Positions 2,802 through 49,253 of a DNA stretch of 64,000 bases are shown here, piece after piece (positions within the stretch are counted from its first letter, which is position 1; each line of letters begins with the position of its first letter). The stretch is from the IMG/VR virus record IMGVR_UViG_3300036901_000073, positions 2,539 to 66,538 of that record; one strand, written 5' to 3'. The notes under the pieces were generated by a model. It worked only from the letters and a program-made list of their open reading frames with translations, made no database searches and had not been told where the DNA came from. The position numbers and the translations under genes are program-made. The stretch comes from a virus.

Positions 2802-4349
2802 TCAGAAGCCAATACTCCACCAATATATGGTATTGTTGTCGACCGTTGCGATCAAGCCGATAGCGATATTACTGTTACCATCTGGCGCAGCACCCACGTA
2901 ATTGTTGGCCGTTGGAGCGGCTCCAAAGGATGCGAATGCCGCGAGATGGGCGTTCGGATAAGCATAATTGAGGCCGACCGACTGATTAGCGCCAGTGGTT
3001 GGTACGACAAGGCTTCCCCAATTGATGATCAGACCATTTGGGAAAATCTGATAGCCGTTTTGGGCTGCGCTCCAACCAAGAAAGTCGTTCAGAATGGTAC
3101 CGATGGCTGGATTTCCGGTTCCAGCCGCGCCATGAGCGGCCACCAAATATCCAGTTGAGGCAGTGATATTTCCGGTATTGGCGGTTATAGCCCCCGCTGC
3201 TGTGACGGTTGAGTTCGAAACGACCGTATTACCAGCGATCTGGGCAGTCGCGGTGATGTTGGGAGCCTGAATGTAGTTGGCGAGGACATCGGCGGCGGCG
3301 ACCACGTTGGTACCAGCTATGACTTCGCCTGCTGCGGAGATGTTTGAACCGGTTGAGACGATTTGTCCGGTGGCTGTTATCTGGCCAGGTACGGCAAGAT
3401 TTCCATAACCGGTGATATTCCCAACATCATCTATTTGGAGAATTTGTTCCGTATACGCACTGTTAACGAGACTGAATACGCCGTTTAAAACTCGAATGTA
3501 TTTGTTCGGCGTGGTCGAGCCATTGCCAATCAGTTTGATATTGGCACCAACGTTGTTATTAACCGACGAGATTGTTAAACTTGATTCAGAACTGGTGCTC
3601 GCATCCGTTATGGTCGGTTCGCCCGTGAAATGTGGCGAATTCAGCCAGTTGGCTCCGCCAACCAATTGGAAATTGGAGCCATCATAAACGACGGTTATCA
3701 CGCTACCAGCAGATATTTCGCCCGGTGTAAGAGCCACCCCGGTTGTATTGATGAGGTTGACCGCGCCAAAAGAATTCAGATTGAGCGTTGTCGCCCCTGT
3801 ATTGGTGTTCGCCACGTTTATGTTGAACGATATTCCGACCATCCACGCTAGTGAGTTTGGCGCTGGCTCGATGAACGCGCTGAGCGCGTTGGCGATGCCA
3901 ACATCAAGGGCGTATTTGTCCACATAGGATGGATAGTAGTACCATGAATTGCCGAGGCGATTGGCGAGCGCGGGCAAGCCATTGTAGCTGTTGTAGGCAT
4001 CGATCAGATAGACCGGAGAGGCGGCGAGACTGGCCGCTGGCAGCGCGGCATCGGTCGCGACCTCGGTGATGGCTCCCACGCCACGAATGTTTGACGTGGC
4101 CCACGCCGTGCCATTCCAGATTTCCAACTGGGCCAGGGTCGTGTTATACCAAAGCTGTCCCACCAACGGATTCGCCGGAGGGGTGGCATAGGAGAAATTC
4201 TCCAACAGATGAACGAAATCCTCCGCGATGTAATCACCGTAACCAGCGAAATTCCGCCCGACGAGCGTGAGTGATGACGTGTTGTCAACAGTCGTGTCGG
4301 CGACCGTGGTGAGAAGCGTTCCGTTAGTTAAAGTGACTGTATATGGCAA
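2802..4349 (-). CDS. tail fibre / receptor-binding protein B
   Basis: Same N-terminal ~230 aa as 1262..2755; C-terminal NGYQIFPNGLIINWG...IYWWSIGF typical of fibre tips. Confidence 0.8.
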   Translation of the reverse strand: MPYTVTLTNGTLLTTVADTTVDNTSSLTLVGRNFAGYGDYIAEDFVHLLENFSYATPPANPLVGQLWYNTTLAQLEIWNGTAWATSNIRGVGAITEVATDAALPAASLAASPVYLIDAYNSYNGLPALANRLGNSWYYYPSYVDKYALDVGIANALSAFIEPAPNSLAWMVGISFNINVANTNTGATTLNLNSFGAVNLINTTGVALTPGEISAGSVITVVYDGSNFQLVGGANWLNSPHFTGEPTITDASTSSESSLTISSVNNNVGANIKLIGNGSTTPNKYIRVLNGVFSLVNSAYTEQILQIDDVGNITGYGNLAVPGQITATGQIVSTGSNISAAGEVIAGTNVVAAADVLANYIQAPNITATAQIAGNTVVSNSTVTAAGAITANTGNITASTGYLVAAHGAAGTGNPAIGTILNDFLGWSAAQNGYQIFPNGLIINWGSLVVPTTGANQSVGLNYAYPNAHLAAFASFGAAPTANNYVGAAPDGNSNIAIGLIATVDNNTIYWWSIGF

Positions 4350-39387: not shown

Positions 39388-40797
39388 TCAGCACCAACTG
39401 TCATCGGCGGCGGGTGTTGGCGGATTGCTGGCCTGGCTCTGTTGCTGCGCCGAGAAACCGGAACTCGGTCCTGCCGCTGGTGCCGGGTCCCATGTTCCGT
39501 TGTCAACGCTGCCAGCGTTGAACCCGATCTGCGACGTTCCGGTTTGTTGCGAATTGAAGACACCCATGGCAGCCGGGGAAAGTGAGATACCAGCCGAGGT
39601 CGAAAACGCGCCTCCACCACCGATTGCGATGCCAGCGAGTGCCGCCTTGGTGACGCCCACGGAATTGCTGAAAGCACCCATAGCCCCAGCCGTCACGGCG
39701 GCTGTGGCTTGGAACGTCGCGCCACTGACACCGAGCCCCACGCCAATCCCGCCATAAACCCCGATACCGCCGCCAATGCCCGCCGAAACGCCGATGTTGA
39801 GGGAGGCGGATAACGCTGGATTGCCAAGCGACATGTTCGACAGATTGAGTGAGGCTCCGGCGTAGCCGCCGATGGTCAGGGGTCCGAAGGAGAAACTGCC
39901 AAACGTGCCCAACGCTCCCAGTGAGAGTGAACCACCAAAGCGGAAGCCATACGATCCCGAATAATTCGCCGCGTAAGCACCCGAGGAATACGAGGCCAGC
40001 AGTGATTGCACCGAGGGATTGGCGGGCAGCAGGCTGGGGATCGTCGCGAACGGCGAAATCGGAACATATCCCCCAGGGACATTCACTGGATTGCCGTTGA
40101 ACGCGTAGCTGAATTCCGGGAAGATCGCGGTGGAGACCAGTTGTTGAGGAAAATACTGGATGTTCTCATAGGCGATGGTGGTGTTGATCGTGGAAATCTC
40201 GGAATTCGAGTAGTCCAGATCGTCGGCCTCCCAACCGGAGATTCTTGGGTTGCCGAGATTGTATTGATCGAAATATCCATCGTAGAAGTGAAAAATTTCC
40301 AGCCGATTGAAAAAGAACATGGCGTCGGAATATTCACTGCCCCCGTTATTGGCGGTGAATCCGAAGCCCGTTCCGGCGAAATCCTTGAAATTCGCGTAGG
40401 TCGCGTCGTATGAATAAGAGCGATTGCTGCCGGATGGACTGGACGAATTGTTGAAGTCGCCGAAGTAGTATCTAGAATAGATCGTCCACATGTTTTGCGC
40501 GCAACCATCCGCGCTGTCATAAAATTGAAGTTTCAGTGGTTCAATTTTGAAACCGGTATGGATTTGGCGTTTCTTGTTGTACTGGTTCAGTTCTTCGAGT
40601 TTCGGATTCACGTGCGGACGATCCACCGACTTCACGGCGAAGGTCAGGTTCCCGGTGAACACCGAAGCCAGATAGGAACCAGGCACAAACCGCACGATGA
40701 ATACATTGCGTTGCCTCGGAAAGCCGCCCTGTTGTGAAAAAGTAAGGGCGGCTTGCGTCGGCGTTTGTAATGTAGGACCAGAGTAAGACCCACTCAT
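39388..40797 (-). CDS. tail tube-like / baseplate-tube initiator (gp54-like)
   Basis: VKSVDRP...LNQYNKKRQ...I..P....FYD, LDYS...I.YE tube-fold pattern; directly downstream of tube gene. Confidence 0.7.
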   Translation of the reverse strand: MSGSYSGPTLQTPTQAALTFSQQGGFPRQRNVFIVRFVPGSYLASVFTGNLTFAVKSVDRPHVNPKLEELNQYNKKRQIHTGFKIEPLKLQFYDSADGCAQNMWTIYSRYYFGDFNNSSSPSGSNRSYSYDATYANFKDFAGTGFGFTANNGGSEYSDAMFFFNRLEIFHFYDGYFDQYNLGNPRISGWEADDLDYSNSEISTINTTIAYENIQYFPQQLVSTAIFPEFSYAFNGNPVNVPGGYVPISPFATIPSLLPANPSVQSLLASYSSGAYAANYSGSYGFRFGGSLSLGALGTFGSFSFGPLTIGGYAGASLNLSNMSLGNPALSASLNIGVSAGIGGGIGVYGGIGVGLGVSGATFQATAAVTAGAMGAFSNSVGVTKAALAGIAIGGGGAFSTSAGISLSPAAMGVFNSQQTGTSQIGFNAGSVDNGTWDPAPAAGPSSGFSAQQQSQASNPPTPAADDSWC

Positions 40798-42101
40798 CCA
40801 ATGAACGAACTTGACAGCAAGATTGGTATCGTTGGCATGAGACCACCAGACTGCGTGGCGTTGTCGAACCGAATCGACATTTCGATGGTCATCGCGTCAG
40901 CGGTTGAATAGTCGAATGTCTCATAATTGCACTCGGCCAGGAAGCAACCTTCGAATACCCATTGCTCAAGAATGGTGTCATCGCCGCCATCGAGCGTATT
41001 GATCAGCATGCCGAATTTATAATCAGCGGCGGAAGCCGGAACCGTCTGATCGAAGAAATTCATCTGCTTCTGAAGCTGAGCGCCAACCAATGACGACACG
41101 GAATTCGTGATGTCATCACGGACGGTGAGCGAGAGCGCCTGCCATTCCGCCTTACCAGCGTAGTAAGCGATGCTGTTGTATGAATGAACCGTGACCGGAT
41201 TGAAGTTGACGTTCGGGCGACCAACCGTGGTGACCTGTTGCGTCAACGCGATGGAACCCGAAGGAATGCCAAAATTGGTCACAACGACGTTGAAACGATT
41301 TTTGACCTTGGGCATGAGCATTCCACCCCTCCCACCCGGTCCCGGTACCAAAGGTACACCAAAATTTTGCCCTTTATTTTCAATAGAGGTCGTTAGACTC
41401 TATCCGCTTTCGCTGCTATACATTACTGTATAGAGAAGACTATATCACCATCCTTTAGTAAGGACGCTACCCGCTTCGACCCACTTGGGTCTACTCCCTT
41501 TCGGGATAGTCGTTGAACCTTGATTAAAGTTTTGATATATTCAAGTAAATGGAACACGAAATATTTCTAGCATACGTGGCTGGCATTATGGACGGTGAGG
41601 GTTGTTTTAGGATTGAGAAAAAACGTCCTAATGCCGCTCAAAAGTCCATCAAGTACACGATGATGATTACCCTTCAGATGGGAGAGAAGGCAGTGATGGA
41701 TCACATCGCCTCTCATCTTGAGATTACCCCTCTGTTCATAAATCTACAACAGTGGAAATACAAAGATAATCAACCTCGTCGTCCAGCTTATCGGATTCAG
41801 CTTTTTTCAAAGCGTGCTGCCGATTTTATCCGCCTGATACTTCCTTATCTTGTCGGCAAGAAAGAGCAGGCGAGGTTATGCCTTGAATTCAACGATCTCA
41901 TAAGCAGCCAAGTAAAACTCAAACGAAAATTCACGGAAAGTGAACTTGCTATTCGAGATGACTATTATGAGCGTGTTACATTACTTAAGCATATCTAATT
42001 TTAACCCTTGGCTGCTGATTGTCCTTTTCGAGGAGTTTCCAGCAATTCGAGTAGTTCTCAATAATCATTGCTGATTATTGCCCCAAATTTAGGGTTGTTA
42101 T
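40794..42101 (-). CDS. tail tube protein (gp19-like), split by a group I intron; exons 42091-42101 and 40794-41370
   Basis: Spliced N terminus (I/M)TTLQNFGVPL...GMLMPKVKNRF.V; YYAGKAEWQ, EQWVFEGCF, IRFDNA; SD AAGGAG and late box 42150-42155 upstream; start codon uncertain. Confidence 0.8.
41371..42090 (-). mobile_element. group I self-splicing intron
   Basis: Core elements on minus strand: P AATTGCTGGAAA, Q AATCAGCAG, R GTTCAACGACTA, S GATATAGTCT; P1 CCCU/GGGG with U-G at the 5' splice site; terminal G; splicing joins a plausible N terminus. Confidence 0.85.
41549..41998 (+). CDS. single-motif LAGLIDADG homing endonuclease, antisense within the intron
   Basis: LAYVAGIMDGEGCF motif; ILPYLVGKKEQA. 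Confidence 0.9.
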   Translation: MEHEIFLAYVAGIMDGEGCFRIEKKRPNAAQKSIKYTMMITLQMGEKAVMDHIASHLEITPLFINLQQWKYKDNQPRRPAYRIQLFSKRAADFIRLILPYLVGKKEQARLCLEFNDLISSQVKLKRKFTESELAIRDDYYERVTLLKHI

Positions 42102-42180
42102 GGCACATACTCCTTAAAAAAATGTTTCGAGAGCCATTCTCGTTGCAGATATTTAGCTAAAAGAGTAATATACGCAGTTA

Positions 42181-42888
42181 ATGAACAATAGCTATTATGT
42201 TTACAACCTGCTGGACCCACGCTACGAACACCATCCGCCCTTTTACACCGGAAAAGGCAGCGGGAATCGGGCAAACATGCACATGCACGAATCAAAGCGA
42301 AGACATGAGAATCCACGCAAGTATGCCAAAATTCAAAAGATTAGGGCTGCTGGTCTTGAGCCTATCATTGAATATTACGCTACTGATTTGTCAGAGGAAG
42401 ATGCATACAAATTGGAAGCCGAACTAATCATAAAATTTGGAAGAGCGGGGATTGATGAGGGAGGCATCCTTACAAATCTACTCTTGGATGGTCGCCCTCC
42501 CCTTAGGTCAGGTCCGATGTCAGATGAACAGAAAGAGGCGATCAGAAAAGGAAATTCCGGCAAGATACGCACATTAGAACAGTGTGCAGAACTTTCACGG
42601 AATAGAAAAGGAAGGCCCCGTGCGTCTCCGACCGAAGAAACCAAGGAACTCATACGTCTGGGAAACATCGCCGCCAAGGTTGACATCAGGCTATCGGATG
42701 ATTTGACAGGGAGGACATTTGGCTCCTACACTGTGGCAGAAAAAAGTCGAGATGAGCGTCCCAGGATACGTGGTGCCAACGGCATATACTGGAAGTGCCT
42801 ATGTTCATCATGCGATAAGGAAAAAGAAGTTCAGCAATCACAATTGATGAAGGGAACATTCAGGATTTGTTGTCCAACCGCATCCTAA
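42181..42888 (+). CDS. free-standing GIY-YIG-type homing endonuclease with NUMOD3-like repeats
   Basis: YYVYNLLDPR...FYTGKG.GNR...H...E.ELI..FGR...GILTN; MSDEQKEAIR and TEETKELIR repeats; AT-richer than flanks. Confidence 0.8.
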   Translation: MNNSYYVYNLLDPRYEHHPPFYTGKGSGNRANMHMHESKRRHENPRKYAKIQKIRAAGLEPIIEYYATDLSEEDAYKLEAELIIKFGRAGIDEGGILTNLLLDGRPPLRSGPMSDEQKEAIRKGNSGKIRTLEQCAELSRNRKGRPRASPTEETKELIRLGNIAAKVDIRLSDDLTGRTFGSYTVAEKSRDERPRIRGANGIYWKCLCSSCDKEKEVQQSQLMKGTFRICCPTAS

Positions 42889-42902
42889 CAAAGGAACTTA
42901 AC

Positions 42903-43235
42903 ATGAAACCTGTTATCAAAATACCAGCCGATGTCAGGAATGACTCTGGGCTGTCGCCGCCGGAAATCGAAGAAATGTTCAATAGCCATGATATGATCGA
43001 ATTGTCATATGGCGACATCGTGATGATGACGCATAAGAGCGCACTCGCAGACGCTTTAGAATCCGTCAGCAAATACGATGCGGGCCAACTCGCACGCATC
43101 AAAGAGTCGGTGGACATCGCGCTGCGCGCAAATTTAACGAAATTGGCCAACCCTGACACCCTTGTGAAATCGGACGCGGACGACTTCTTCGGTGACTTGC
43201 TGTTGTGGGAGGCGTTGAAAGGGATGTCGTCCTGA
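42903..43235 (+). CDS. hypothetical protein
   Basis: AAGGA SD before ATG 42903. Confidence 0.6.
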   Translation: MKPVIKIPADVRNDSGLSPPEIEEMFNSHDMIELSYGDIVMMTHKSALADALESVSKYDAGQLARIKESVDIALRANLTKLANPDTLVKSDADDFFGDLLLWEALKGMSS

Positions 43236-45914: not shown

Positions 45915-48900
45915 TTATTGGGCTGGTGGTGCTCCCTGGCCGCCCATCGGTGCCGATGGCGTCTGGCCACCTTCCATGGGTACGCCATCCGGTCCCAGGT
46001 CTCCCTCGGGCATGTCAGGCGGCATATCGCTCATGTCATCCCCCATCGGGCGCACGCCGACCGACGACAATCCATCGGTCATCTCGCCCTCGGCTGGGGT
46101 TGAACCAGTCTTCTTCTTGAGCTTGGTGGAATTCTCTTCACTCCACAACTTCTCGTTCTCAAGCATTTCGTCCTCAGTAAGGCCCAAGAACCGCTTCAAC
46201 TTGAAACGCTCGGCCAGCTTCTTGTTCTCCGACACACCCTGATACACCTGGACGCGCTGGGCGTCCAGTTCGATCTGGCGGTATCGGGTGAACGATTGCG
46301 GTGGGGTGAACTGAAGCTCGAACAGGCCCCAGTCCATCTCGATGCCGTTCTTGACCAGATAGCGTTTGAAATCCTTGTCGAAAACCGGGGCGAGGAGACT
46401 CTGCCAACGCATGCAATATTTCGTGAAGCGGAATTCCTGAATCATCGCGGCACCAAGCTTGCCATCATTGAAGGCGATGCCGGTGCCCGCGTCATCCTCG
46501 CCGAGGTTCAGATAGGAGACTGGCACTCTTAAGCCTCGTGCCAGTTTGCGTGAGAAGAACATCAGATCGGTGATCTCGCCGGTCTGCTCTCCACCTGGCA
46601 AAGTCTCGACTTTCGAGCCTCTCCCGTCCGAGTTATGAACATAGACACCAGCAGCCAAGGCAAAGATATGACTGCCCGATGGACTTTCGATGGTGATGTC
46701 GCCGGTATCGGCTCTCTCTGTGAGTAATTGGACAGAAACTACTTTGTGATTGTGACTTTCTTTTAGTTCTGCCCAGCTATAATAGCCGCCAAACTGTGAG
46801 ATGGCATCCAACCTTCTGATGTCGACCTTGTCGATTGCGTGACCGAAGGAATTAGTTTTTGATTGGTTAAGTCGGAGGAACTCCCCCATGAATTCACCAT
46901 CATTGGACAGTATTTGTGCGACCTTCGCTTTCGCGAAAAGATTGGCTGACGCGATTGTTACCATCATTTCGAATAATTTCTCAGAATACTCAAAGGCTAC
47001 ACGTTTGACATATTTCTTGTTACCTCCAGCGCCATTAACTCGGTTACGATCACCAAGCCTCTTATAAAATTCCTCATCACCGTTATCGTAGAGACGCCGC
47101 ATACCTTGTTTCAGTTTTTCTCTGGCTTCTGGATCGTTCCATTGACGGTTCAGCGAATAAGTTCCGACCTCTTTATGCAGATTTTCGTGATCATCCCACG
47201 TCATAATCTCAAGATTATCTGGATTGTTGTTTTCACTGTCGAAATCTTTGTGATGAACAACCCAATCTCGTCCCACAGGTTTAGGACACATCGTTGAATG
47301 AACGAACTTAGTTTTTGTCCCTTTTGCGTTGCTGACGTAACGCATATACCCAGCATTTTTCTGTTTCGGGCCTGTCCTGCCTTCTTTGAGATAAAGCGGC
47401 ATTAAAGAGTCCATCGGCTTCAAATTACCGGCTTCTTTCTCCGTTCCATCCCTTAGAATGAACCGATGATCCGGTGTGACATCAACATATTCATCATTGT
47501 CCAACGTCACACGAACCATCTCAGCATCGCGACGAGTGATGCCAGCCCATGTTATGCGACCGGCTTCGAGGTCATGGGTCTCTCGACTTTGCGAATAGAC
47601 ATAGTTCTGCTTACCCTGTTCATGTTCATCGATAATTTCACTTAATGTAAGAGTTCTGCCATCCAATAAATGCATAGCAGTATTGAGCCGGAGACATGAC
47701 TGAGCGAAAAAATAATCGTCATTTATGCTGTTTTGGAGAAAAATATTCTCTGAAATGGCGAAATTATGGAACGCATTATGGATTTCTTCTTTATCAACGG
47801 TGATCGTGCCAACGTCTATTTTGTCTTGCATTTCAATCACGCTCAAAGCATGAACGATCATGTGCTCGGGACCATGTCCGGTCTTACGAAGCACGCCATT
47901 TTTGTCGGTTCGAGCGAAGCGTTCTCTCGCGATAAGTTCATGTTCTGGCAGGAGATCACGAGCCTGCACCAATTTTCCGCCGAGCGTTGGAAATTTATGG
48001 TCAGGCGTGACCATCACCGCGCCACCATTATCCAACATCACGCAGACGACTTCTGCTTCCTGACGGGTCACGCCCGCCCATGTGATCGGACCTTTGGTGA
48101 TTTCTCCCGTTTTAGGATCGCAACTATAGACCCAGTTTTCCTTGCCATCGTTGTATTCGGTGATGAGATCACTCAGCGACAAATTGCGTCCATCAGTTAA
48201 GGGAATGATGGTCGATAGAGAGATACACAGAGGATTATAAGCCGCATCTAGGATGTTGCCTCCGGTGCCGGTTCGGTTCGGAATTCGTCTCTGATGGATG
48301 TCATTTTTAATCATCTCAATGTGTCGTTTGGCTCGTTCCGGTGGCATCGTTCCGACATCAATATAGAAAATCCGTCGTTCTGGAGCGCGTTGTACGCGAT
48401 AAATGATGATCGAGTCTTCCAGAAGCTCCTTCTGTTTGAAGACTTTGAAGATTGGTTCTAAAATGGAAGTTCCGAACGGCCAGTTGACATCGTTTCCTAT
48501 GGAAAGGCTCAAATGCACTACATGTTCGGCGTCCACCACCGAGACTTCCTGCGAGAACGGCCCGAGCATGTGGCGTTGTCTGGGATCGGACGCGGCACCG
48601 GCCAATGAGAAGGCGGCGGGTCCTGACGAGGCTGACACCGATGAGACGCGGGACGCGCCGATGTTGGATGTGCCGTAGGGGGTGCGGTACTGATTGGGGT
48701 CGGCCTGTTTCGAGCCGAACTGGGTTTGCTTGTTGTAATCGAGACCTCGGATGAGATACTCATCGGGTTTCTTGCCCTTGGTATCATCGACCTTGACCAT
48801 CTCGACCATGAAGTGATCGAGCCACAGCCATTCGTTGGTTTCGGGATCACGCAGGAAGAAGGCGTCGCCATTTTTCAGCACGTCGCGGAACATGTACCAC

Positions 48901-49253
48901 AGCCGTGAGCGGAACTGGTTCAATTTGACCCATTTCGTCATCATCTGCTTGAGGATTTTCACCTCGGATTCGTTGGGTTCTCCGGAGTATTTGAACTCGA
49001 AGGGTTCATCGGCATGTTCTTCTGAGAGTGTACTGAAATCCGCGATGGTATCGAGCGCGGCGTTGATGTCCGAATCTCTGTCCATGTCATCGAACTGGTA
49101 GTACCTTTGGATTCTGTTGGGATGGCCCGCGTAGACCAGTGGCAGGTAGCTGGCGAAATTCGCGCTGGTGCCTGCACCACTGAATCTGTCGGTGGTGGCT
49201 TGCATATTGGGTTGCGCTGTTTTAATAACGCGGAAGTGTCTTTTCCAACTCAC
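45915..49253 (-). CDS. portal protein (T4 gp20-like) containing two inteins
   Basis: LLEDSIIIYRVQRAPERRIFYIDVG, DDYFF, GRGSKVETLPGG, LARGLRVPVSYL; ~591 aa after intein removal. Confidence 0.92.
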   Translation of the reverse strand: MSWKRHFRVIKTAQPNMQATTDRFSGAGTSANFASYLPLVYAGHPNRIQRYYQFDDMDRDSDINAALDTIADFSTLSEEHADEPFEFKYSGEPNESEVKILKQMMTKWVKLNQFRSRLWYMFRDVLKNGDAFFLRDPETNEWLWLDHFMVEMVKVDDTKGKKPDEYLIRGLDYNKQTQFGSKQADPNQYRTPYGTSNIGASRVSSVSASSGPAAFSLAGAASDPRQRHMLGPFSQEVSVVDAEHVVHLSLSIGNDVNWPFGTSILEPIFKVFKQKELLEDSIIIYRVQRAPERRIFYIDVGTMPPERAKRHIEMIKNDIHQRRIPNRTGTGGNILDAAYNPLCISLSTIIPLTDGRNLSLSDLITEYNDGKENWVYSCDPKTGEITKGPITWAGVTRQEAEVVCVMLDNGGAVMVTPDHKFPTLGGKLVQARDLLPEHELIARERFARTDKNGVLRKTGHGPEHMIVHALSVIEMQDKIDVGTITVDKEEIHNAFHNFAISENIFLQNSINDDYFFAQSCLRLNTAMHLLDGRTLTLSEIIDEHEQGKQNYVYSQSRETHDLEAGRITWAGITRRDAEMVRVTLDNDEYVDVTPDHRFILRDGTEKEAGNLKPMDSLMPLYLKEGRTGPKQKNAGYMRYVSNAKGTKTKFVHSTMCPKPVGRDWVVHHKDFDSENNNPDNLEIMTWDDHENLHKEVGTYSLNRQWNDPEAREKLKQGMRRLYDNGDEEFYKRLGDRNRVNGAGGNKKYVKRVAFEYSEKLFEMMVTIASANLFAKAKVAQILSNDGEFMGEFLRLNQSKTNSFGHAIDKVDIRRLDAISQFGGYYSWAELKESHNHKVVSVQLLTERADTGDITIESPSGSHIFALAAGVYVHNSDGRGSKVETLPGGEQTGEITDLMFFSRKLARGLRVPVSYLNLGEDDAGTGIAFNDGKLGAAMIQEFRFTKYCMRWQSLLAPVFDKDFKRYLVKNGIEMDWGLFELQFTPPQSFTRYRQIELDAQRVQVYQGVSENKKLAERFKLKRFLGLTEDEMLENEKLWSEENSTKLKKKTGSTPAEGEMTDGLSSVGVRPMGDDMSDMPPDMPEGDLGPDGVPMEGGQTPSAPMGGQGAPPAQ
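46632..47696 (-). mobile_element. intein 2 (355 aa) with HNH endonuclease domain
   Basis: CLRLNT start, VTPDHRF block B, VHHKDFDSENNNPDNL HNH, GVYVHN/S end. Confidence 0.9.
47730..48227 (-). mobile_element. intein 1 (166-aa mini-intein)
   Basis: CISLST start, VTPDHKF block B, HNFAISENIFLQN/S end. Confidence 0.88.

Follow-up and report, generated by a model that had tools for sequence, protein, structure and literature searches.

The region analyzed here is a stretch of 64,000 nucleotides (nt) of viral DNA (positions 2,539 to 66,538 of the IMG/VR virus record IMGVR_UViG_3300036901_000073; henceforth the window), in which a tail tube gene on the minus strand is interrupted by a group I intron that itself bears, on the opposite strand, a gene for a LAGLIDADG homing endonuclease. 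The source record is a 66.5-kb virus with a completeness estimate of 14%, and the window sequence is present in metagenome runs from peat and permafrost. The segment from 38 to 52 kb is a single long minus-strand block of virion genes, including a T4-type portal, a collagen-like tail protein and two tube-like proteins, and is broken by three plus-strand open reading frames (ORFs; 41549-43235). The ORF at 40794-41351 (-; 185 codons) encodes the tail tube protein (PHROG 4542, E = 2.3e-48), whose nearest cultured relatives are found in the jumbo phages Phosso (55% identity) and Atu_ph07 (49%); the source is an uncultured jumbo phage from peat related to these two. We interpret the locus, with a probability of roughly 80% for the reading as a whole, as a mobile group I intron with an antisense I-CreI-like LAGLIDADG gene in its P6 loop and a candidate extended -10 promoter for that gene. 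The features on which the argument draws are, with the strand in parentheses:

42110-42115 (-): Shine-Dalgarno sequence (SD) of the tube gene, AAGGAG, 8 nt before ATA; the spacing is as in Phosso (GGAG, 8 nt, ATG) and Atu_ph07
42091-42101 (-): coding part of tube exon 1, ATA ACA ACC CT, whose last base, U (42091), marks the 5' splice site; from the in-frame reading and homologues
41371-42090 (-): group I intron of 720 nt with terminal G at 41371; Rfam family RF00028, with the junction set by homologues
42081-42094 (-): P1, exon CCCU (42094-42091) with intron GGGG (42084-42081); read from the sequence as CCCU/AAAUUUGGGG, where Rfam also aligns its first helix
42059-42080 (-): P2 hairpin of 9 base pairs (bp) with a GCAA loop; sequence reading and Rfam
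42010-42047 (-): 5' strand of P4 (P element, 42039-42047), a short P5, then the 3' strand of P4 and the start of P6 (Q element, 42010-42020); Rfam alignment
41522-42006 (-): P6a stem of 7 bp (42000-42006 with 41522-41528), which closes the loop holding the endonuclease cassette; pairing read from the sequence
41549-41998 (+): single-motif LAGLIDADG homing endonuclease gene of 149 amino acids (aa), antisense to the intron; Pfam PF00961, PHROG 5046 and PDB entries of I-CreI and I-MsoI
41513-41541 (+): sigma-70-like site, TTGAAC (41513-41518), 17-nt spacer, TG (41533-41534), TATATT (41536-41541); promoter scan, 9/12 plus TG
41506-41519 (-): R element GGUUCAACGACUAU (J6/7 and 5' strand of P7); identity with relatives and P7 pairing
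41438-41505 (-): P7.1 (41496-41505), P7.2 (41479-41490), 3' strand of P3 (41467-41473), P8 (41450-41465), and S element with 3' strand of P7 (41438-41446); RNAalifold
41372-41433 (-): P9 (41416-41433), additional 3' hairpins and the tail to the terminal G; Rfam and RNAalifold
40794-41370 (-): tube exon 2 including the stop codon; ORF, PHROG match and homologue comparison

The identity of the intron is established by a match to RF00028 at 41416-42100 (-) with a score of 51.6 bits (E = 1.6e-11 in a 3-kb search and 3.4e-10 over the whole window), which lies above the gathering score of 50 bits that defines membership in this family; it is the sole non-tRNA Rfam family matched in the 64 kb. The borders are those of a group I intron, with the terminal U of exon 1 (42091) engaged in the U.G pair of P1 and a G (41371) at the end of the intron. 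In the 5' half P2 is followed in order by P3, P4, the short P5 and Q, the complement of which, GCTGCTGATT, is common to all the relatives described below, and the S element of the 3' half reads GAUAUAGUC. When the 3' halves of eight such introns were folded together with RNAalifold, compensatory changes were observed in 22 of the 33 predicted pairs, including pairs of P7, P7.2, P8 and P9; this covariation support covers the 3' half, and the 5' half comes from reading by eye and from Rfam. The R element of these relatives, GTTCAACGACTA, is identical in seven of the eight, with L008 having GTTCAACGACCA, and the P7 pairs are retained in all eight with one compensatory change. Both a P7.1 and a P7.2 hairpin are present, a combination that we take to be typical of subgroup IA. 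The loop of P1, AAAUUU, could pair as P10 with the AAAUUU of exon 2. Exon 2 opens with a G followed by CAAAATTTTG (41360-41369, -), a perfect 10-bp palindrome 1 nt past the insertion site, which could form P10 with the first six bases of the intron and might also represent the center of the target of a homodimeric nuclease.

The position of the junction is set by comparison with intronless homologues. Exon 1 read in frame gives *GVCAITT followed by CT, and exon 2 past its first G reads QNFGVPLVPGPGGRGG (also given as QNFGVPLVPGPGGRGGMLMPK), so that the join ACAACCCT/GCAAAAT encodes (I)TTLQNFGVPL. The closest intronless genes, L055 and L064 (70% identity), begin with ATG ACC ACT TTG CAG AAT TTC GGC GTT CCG, that is MTTLQNFGVP, and continue as MTTLQNFGVPL; other intronless N-termini are MSTTLQNFGVPL in L056, MATLNKFGVP in Atu_ph07 and MAETLSKFGVP in Phosso. 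As judged against L055 and L064, removal of the intron restores the host reading frame, and since the joined exons match the N-terminus of the intronless homologues, the codon that is split is codon 4 (Leu, CT/G), a placement that holds only with a start at ATA 42101-42099. In unspliced RNA the tube frame stops after five intron codons. No insert was found at the N-terminus of the tube gene in any of 13 further IMG/VR tube loci (15 were fetched, of which L058 and L069 are without the N-terminus). An alternative arrangement was considered, with the acceptor one base later and the start at ATG 42106, which yields MCHNNPQNFGVP; it was rejected because the conserved T-L is lost, the ATG lies only 1 nt past the SD and the homologues align with the ATA. 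The initial annotation, made from the sequence alone, had proposed a group I intron with these borders in the tail tube gene, interrupting it at about codon 4 with this same junction; the RF00028 and PHROG matches and the homologue N-termini reproduced by the joined exons bear out each of these points.

Three observations count against the intron as read here. The margin over the Rfam cut-off is just 1.6 bits, which is accounted for by the 470-nt insert, and the printed alignment misplaces R on an unrelated stretch within the ORF; the true position of R follows from its identity with the eight related introns together with the P7 pairing. Secondly, ATA would initiate a major structural protein only weakly, implying either an assembly error at this position or an unusual mode of expression. 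Thirdly, no contig joining 42091 to 41370 was recovered in three RNA libraries and one DNA run, in which gaps between contigs are uninformative because Logan contigs break at core sequences common to other introns of the community, with loose contig ends at 41472, 41491, 41521, 42006 and 42048. The exon-intron borders, as well as 42147-42965 with a neighboring GIY-YIG endonuclease gene, are likewise uncovered by contigs of the three RNA libraries, with the same uninformative gaps. The three libraries, all peat metatranscriptomes, do contain contigs that match the window exactly within the intron (41376-42052 in X7, 41607-42078 in X10 and 41580-42057 in X14) and in exon 2. These contigs give neither strand nor true ends and DNA may be present, and they indicate presence in RNA libraries only.

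The ATA (42101-42099) occupies the position of the ATG in the intronless homologues, at the normal 8-nt spacing from AAGGAG. The only ATG close by (42106-42104) is shifted by one base relative to the frame, and exon 1 has no in-frame ATG, GTG or TTG downstream of the TAA at 42116-42114. The ATA is thus either a rare start codon on a major virion protein or an assembly base error or variant. Within exon 2 the codons for a conserved G-R-G-G form GGGAGGGG (41321-41338, -), which is followed after 4 nt by an in-frame ATG (41321); this internal SD look-alike could give rise to an N-terminally shortened tube protein in the absence of splicing. Taken to its extreme, such internal initiation would mean that there is no functional intron at all, with the tube protein starting at ATG 41321 behind GGGAGGGG and the ribozyme-like sequence upstream being a relic in the leader. 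The loss of ATG at the ancestral start in favor of ATA, and the strength of the internal SD and ATG, would be accommodated by this explanation, which we nevertheless consider extremely improbable: the joined exons give a conserved N-terminus (TTLQNFGVPL...GRGG) that is kept in homologues, the helices of the ribozyme covary, and GGGAGGGG codes for the conserved G-R-G-G.

The product of the antisense gene belongs to the LAGLIDADG_1 family (PF00961; 26.9 bits against a cut-off of 23.1) and matches PHROG 5046 with E = 2e-22. Its residues 5-129 align with chains of I-CreI and I-MsoI in PDB (E = 1e-3 to 1e-5), and a motif, LAYVAGIMDGEG, is present along with 21 invariant columns in all five aligned sequences, one of which is that of the window. 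The ORF is intact and retains both the catalytic motif and the conserved Lys region. A search of a protein collection at E <= 1e-3 recovered five proteins including itself, the best other being P0004 with 69% identity over its full length; the locus of P0004 was absent from the results of a metagenome scan with the endonuclease alignment and of a viral scan with P0004 itself. The enzyme is presumably an I-CreI-like homodimer. The ORF lies wholly between R (to 41519) and Q (from 42010), inside the P6a stem, and the Pfam match and the positions of the core elements thus confirm the initial assignment of a LAGLIDADG frame placed antisense between Q and R. One contig, recovered in a DNA run (X4) and an RNA library (X7), matches both flanks of the cassette over 20-32 nt on each side with a 29-nt hairpin taking the place of 41523-42005; it probably derives from a related intron in the same community that has no ORF, and shows P6 without the cassette.

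As the gene is antisense to the tube transcript it needs transcription of the plus strand. Furthermore, it has no SD, and an in-frame TAA stands immediately 5' of its only usable ATG, which implies that it needs its own transcript and an SD-independent, possibly leaderless, mode of translation. The missing SD could also be taken as a sign that the gene is silent, decaying cargo, the intron itself being kept by splicing alone. Such decay would fit both the rarity of the layout in the wider intron family (0/80; see below) and the homing cycle, in which the endonuclease is expected to be lost upon fixation. Given the intact ORF with its catalytic motif and conserved Lys region, and the existence of a full-length homologue with 69% identity, we regard silent cargo as highly unlikely.

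The antisense layout is recurrent in uncultured phages. A total of 40 endonuclease loci was assembled, 39 from the metagenome scan with the endonuclease alignment and one from the viral scan, and in eight of these (L007-L012, L018 and L019) an R element, GTTCAACGAC(T/C)A, is found antisense to the endonuclease gene, with TTGAAC ending 6-27 nt before the chosen start codon. The endonucleases of these eight loci are 30-42% identical to that of the window and are its closest relatives, apart from L016 and L017, which are similarly close and show no match to R. No R element was detected by regular expression before the endonuclease gene in the other 32 loci; a single match resembling S or R lies downstream on the same strand in L013, L014 and L027. 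In L019 a weak Rfam hit below the cut-off (29.7 bits) encloses the antisense ORF within a major-capsid gene, the exons of which match the PHROG major head protein, and the other seven loci carry the same exon sequence. The same capsid gene in L019 contains a second, ORF-less group I intron (4074-4302, -; 59.5 bits) at a distance of about 600 nt from the intron with the endonuclease gene, and this is the sole hit at the Rfam gathering threshold among the 40 loci. As the ORF-bearing introns score below this cut-off, their recognition rests on the R and S motifs and on covariation.

These capsid introns resemble that of the window in the sequence of R and P7.1, the endonuclease family, the orientation of the gene and its position in P6. 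They differ in being inserted at one site of the major-capsid gene, with exon 1 ending in ...MKERNIPQ or a near variant, and in the architecture of the 5' half, which has a long P5 extension and no P2 hairpin, unlike the window intron with its P2. Seven of the eight have an SD, as judged by eye, and their ORFs, unlike that of the window, run into the complement of Q and end there in TGA. The antisense ORF of these relatives spans from the complement of R to the complement of Q and ends in ...RC followed by the stop, with the TGA within GCTGCTGATTG (e.g. L019, 3315-3335), implying that both ends of the gene are written in the ribozyme core.

The ribozyme core also marks a much larger family, in which a 16-mer spanning R and P7.1 is found in >115 IMG/VR contigs. 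In a survey of 80 IMG/VR loci with this 16-mer, P6 is short in 39, holds inserts of 392-993 nt in 15 and was left unclassed by the regular expression in 26. Sense encoding, which the initial annotation had given as usual for phage intron endonucleases, is indeed the rule here: in 13 of the 15 insert-bearing introns the sense strand has a longest open stretch of 101-282 codons (40-41 in the other two), and seven of ten sense ORFs tested match Pfam families of homing endonucleases (five HNH, one GIY-YIG and one NUMOD3; three gave no match). A hidden Markov model of the nine antisense proteins detected no antisense LAGLIDADG in any of the 80 family introns, its one match, in L072, being on the sense strand. 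Among cultured-phage relatives, the annotations of StenR_269, Cyanophage PP, CcrRogue, Faust, Samisti12 and Bacata, in which the genes are co-oriented, give no hint of an antisense intron. In the Gordonia phage Lennon (L185, 2501-2860) tblastn finds a LAGLIDADG-like match (E = 4e-5) antisense within a 1036-aa MuF-like coding sequence that is annotated as continuous, and the same match recurs in five related Gordonia phages; it may represent an intron missed by the annotation or a frame that is open by chance in GC-rich DNA.

On the plus strand the complement of R supplies the TTGAAC hexamer, which is followed after 17 nt by TATATT and, 7 nt further on, by the ATG at 41549. These coordinates, as given in the initial annotation, are exact, and an extended -10 TG is present in addition. 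The arrangement conforms to a sigma-70 promoter with two hexamers, a spacer of 16-18 nt and a start 5-9 nt past the -10 element, with the proviso that the promoter rules of the host may differ. Promoter-like sites are somewhat abundant in the surrounding 2.4 kb (7 observed against 3.4 +/- 2.1 in shuffles). When the 30-nt, 80%-AT spacer was shuffled, a -10 element with at least 5/6 matches at 16-18 nt from TTGAAC arose in 8.4% of cases, and in 0.57% when the TG was also required; the corresponding figures for the 79 family introns without antisense genes are 4/79 and 0/79. Several results point the other way. The -35 hexamer TTGAAC has only 4/6 matches, a -10 element with at least 4/6 matches occurs at this distance by chance in 12 of the 79 introns, and none of the eight antisense relatives has a -10 element 15-19 nt after TTGAAC, the 17-nt position being filled in seven of them by an SD and start codon (by eye). 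The layout itself, absent from the 80 family introns, is rare within the family, which counts against the reading as a whole. The conservation of TTGAAC itself is explained by its being the complement of the ribozyme R element. The hybrid promoter appears modestly better than chance, as a single case peculiar to the window. We regard TTGAAC-17-TGnTATATT as the best candidate and a plausible one, at odds somewhat short of even; if it works, it would represent a local acquisition that arrived with the AT-rich 5' end of the cassette.

From these observations we infer splicing, homing, promoter use and leaderless translation along the following lines. Splicing of the late minus-strand transcript would restore the tube reading frame, and the endonuclease, acting as other homing endonucleases do, would cleave tube alleles that lack the intron, so that the intron spreads by repair. 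Transcription of the plus strand would proceed from TTGAAC-17-TGnTATATT, with the -35 element in the complement of R and P6 and the -10 element in the inserted cassette, and would produce a leaderless or near-leaderless endonuclease mRNA. The initial annotation went further in proposing that the complement of R may act as a promoter element for early, leaderless, splicing-independent expression of the nuclease, and that the antisense RNA might time the splicing of the tube gene; carried to its full form, with a working -35 element in R, the RNA, antisense to the intron and through read-through also to the ribosome-binding site of the tube gene, would delay or time both splicing and translation. 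The requirement for a separate transcript and an SD-independent start stands, and the site in the window does exceed chance, being stronger than any at that position in the 79 family introns and than 99.4% of shuffles; promoter use of R as a conserved design falls, as the relatives lack the -10 element and in seven of eight cases carry an SD instead. In its full form the proposal draws on the hexamers, the 17-nt spacer, the TG and the 7 nt to the ATG, on the SD-less gene, and on the finding that there is no plus-strand terminator-like site between the ORF and exon 1, which makes read-through over the tube start conceivable. Against these stand the failure of the site to be conserved in the eight relatives, the lack of any sequence feature that bears on early expression or splicing timing, and RNA contigs that cannot reveal strand or ends; on balance we find the full proposal unlikely.

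Alternatively, the endonuclease might be transcribed from elsewhere, either from an upstream plus-strand promoter, antisense to exon 2 or the 3' half of the intron, or from a promoter of a phage-specific type, with poor SD-less translation limiting a harmful nuclease. The relatives lend some weight to this, since their SD directly follows R and their transcripts need to start upstream of or within it, and there is a precedent in T4 segD, an antisense free-standing homing endonuclease gene in a structural operon for which no promoter of its own is identified (Edgell et al. 2010, PMC2988022). The X7 contig (41376-42052) extends 170 nt upstream of the proposed start, which minus-strand intron RNA or library DNA would explain equally well. 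No positionally conserved promoter-like site occurs at a shared upstream position in the nine antisense loci, and we judge transcription from elsewhere to be somewhat unlikely.

A more elaborate version of the hybrid promoter can also be envisaged, in which a segment of the core (R/J6-7 and the 3' strand of P6) has been recruited as -35 element and spacer, with the -10 element supplied by the cassette. The leaderless mRNA would then run head-on to the tube transcript and, being complementary to the 5' half of the intron and, if transcription reads through, also to the ribosome-binding site of the tube gene, would oppose splicing and translation of the tube gene, which together with the ATA start would turn the gene into a regulated switch. 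This appears distinctly doubtful.

The layout has a published counterpart in the mycobacteriophage LittleE, where a group I intron in the capsid gene carries the antisense LAGLIDADG gene gp14 and splicing was demonstrated by reverse transcription PCR and N-terminal sequencing (Pope et al. 2013, PMC3706429). In both cases a group I-type intron lies in a gene for virion structure and bears, in antisense orientation, a LAGLIDADG gene of the I-CreI-like kind (PMC3706429), and the LittleE record (JF937101) has gene 14 antisense inside a two-piece capsid coding sequence. The two differ in host gene (capsid as against tail tube) and in host, LittleE infecting a high-GC actinobacterium unlike the window phage. 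They also differ in the site of the gene within the intron: in LittleE the entire Rfam-matched core (1859-2062) lies 5' of gp14 (2065-2598), so that the gene follows P9, whereas that of the window is in the P6 loop. LittleE gp14 was not among the tblastn hits (E <= 1e-3) of the window endonuclease or that of L019, pointing to a different lineage, and the two cases thus share an antisense LAGLIDADG gene inside a virion-gene intron and share neither the insertion point nor a related endonuclease. The novelty implied by the initial annotation is reduced accordingly (PMC3706429): the window offers a new host gene and a different loop for a layout that is already known and rare. A 2014 review of bacterial group I introns contains none of the words "antisense", "opposite" or "orientation", and a full-text literature search (without supplements) missed LittleE and brought up no antisense case in a bacterium or phage.

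Among better characterized systems, the window enzyme resembles I-CreI and I-MsoI (PDB 1u0d and 1m5x) in having a single LAGLIDADG motif and a length of ~150 aa, with weak sequence similarity. Those two enzymes are sense-encoded in introns of algal chloroplast 23S ribosomal RNA genes. A different family, the His-Cys box enzymes, includes I-DirII. The gene for the latter, in the intron Dir.S956-2 of Didymium iridis, is antisense to the ribozyme and has its own promoter (Johansen et al. 2006, via PMC3073962 and PMC3679873), but unlike the window case it lies in eukaryotic nuclear ribosomal DNA and uses an RNA polymerase II promoter, a spliceosomal intron and polyadenylation (PMC3073962, PMC3679873). 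The introns of td, nrdB and nrdD in T4, which encode I-TevI, I-TevIII and I-TevII respectively, have their own promoters within the introns (Edgell et al. 2010, PMC2988022). Endonuclease expression is thereby uncoupled from the host gene, as in the layout proposed for the window; in contrast to the latter, the T4 genes are sense-encoded, specify GIY-YIG or HNH enzymes, have consensus SDs hidden by hairpins and are served by T4 middle and late promoters (PMC2988022).

A jumbo-phage gene, that of the major tail tube, thus joins the short list of phage structural genes with a group I intron and a backward LAGLIDADG gene. In practice, annotation would omit the 11 coding bases at the start of this tube gene and place the protein start wrongly. 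A nuclease gene in antisense position has to supply a promoter or make use of an existing one, and hence offers a clean test of how a selfish gene plugs in to phage transcription; if the hybrid promoter works, a single DNA segment would serve as ribozyme core on one strand and as an RNA polymerase site on the other.

The neighborhood of the intron contains further elements, of which the nearest is

42181-42888 (+): free-standing GIY-YIG endonuclease gene; Pfam PF22945 and PHROG 314 (homing endonuclease)

This gene and an overlapping 122-codon ORF without a known family (together 42181-43235, +) are placed in antisense orientation between two late genes, at a distance of 80 nt from tube exon 1, which recalls T4 segD. 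The GIY-YIG gene has no SD, and a TTGCAG-17-TAATAT, spotted by eye, finishes 9 nt ahead of its ATG. The portal gene (45915-49253, -; Portal_T4, E = 4e-82) is interrupted in frame by an intein (Intein_splicing, residues 529-874) that has an HNH endonuclease motif, the third selfish element inside 8 kb. Finally, the region 5' of the tube SD (42119-42160, -) has a hairpin with a T-run (42142-42128) preceded by TAAATATCT, a motif that recurs 5' of the Phosso tube gene, and may represent a late-promoter-like motif with a structured 5' leader.

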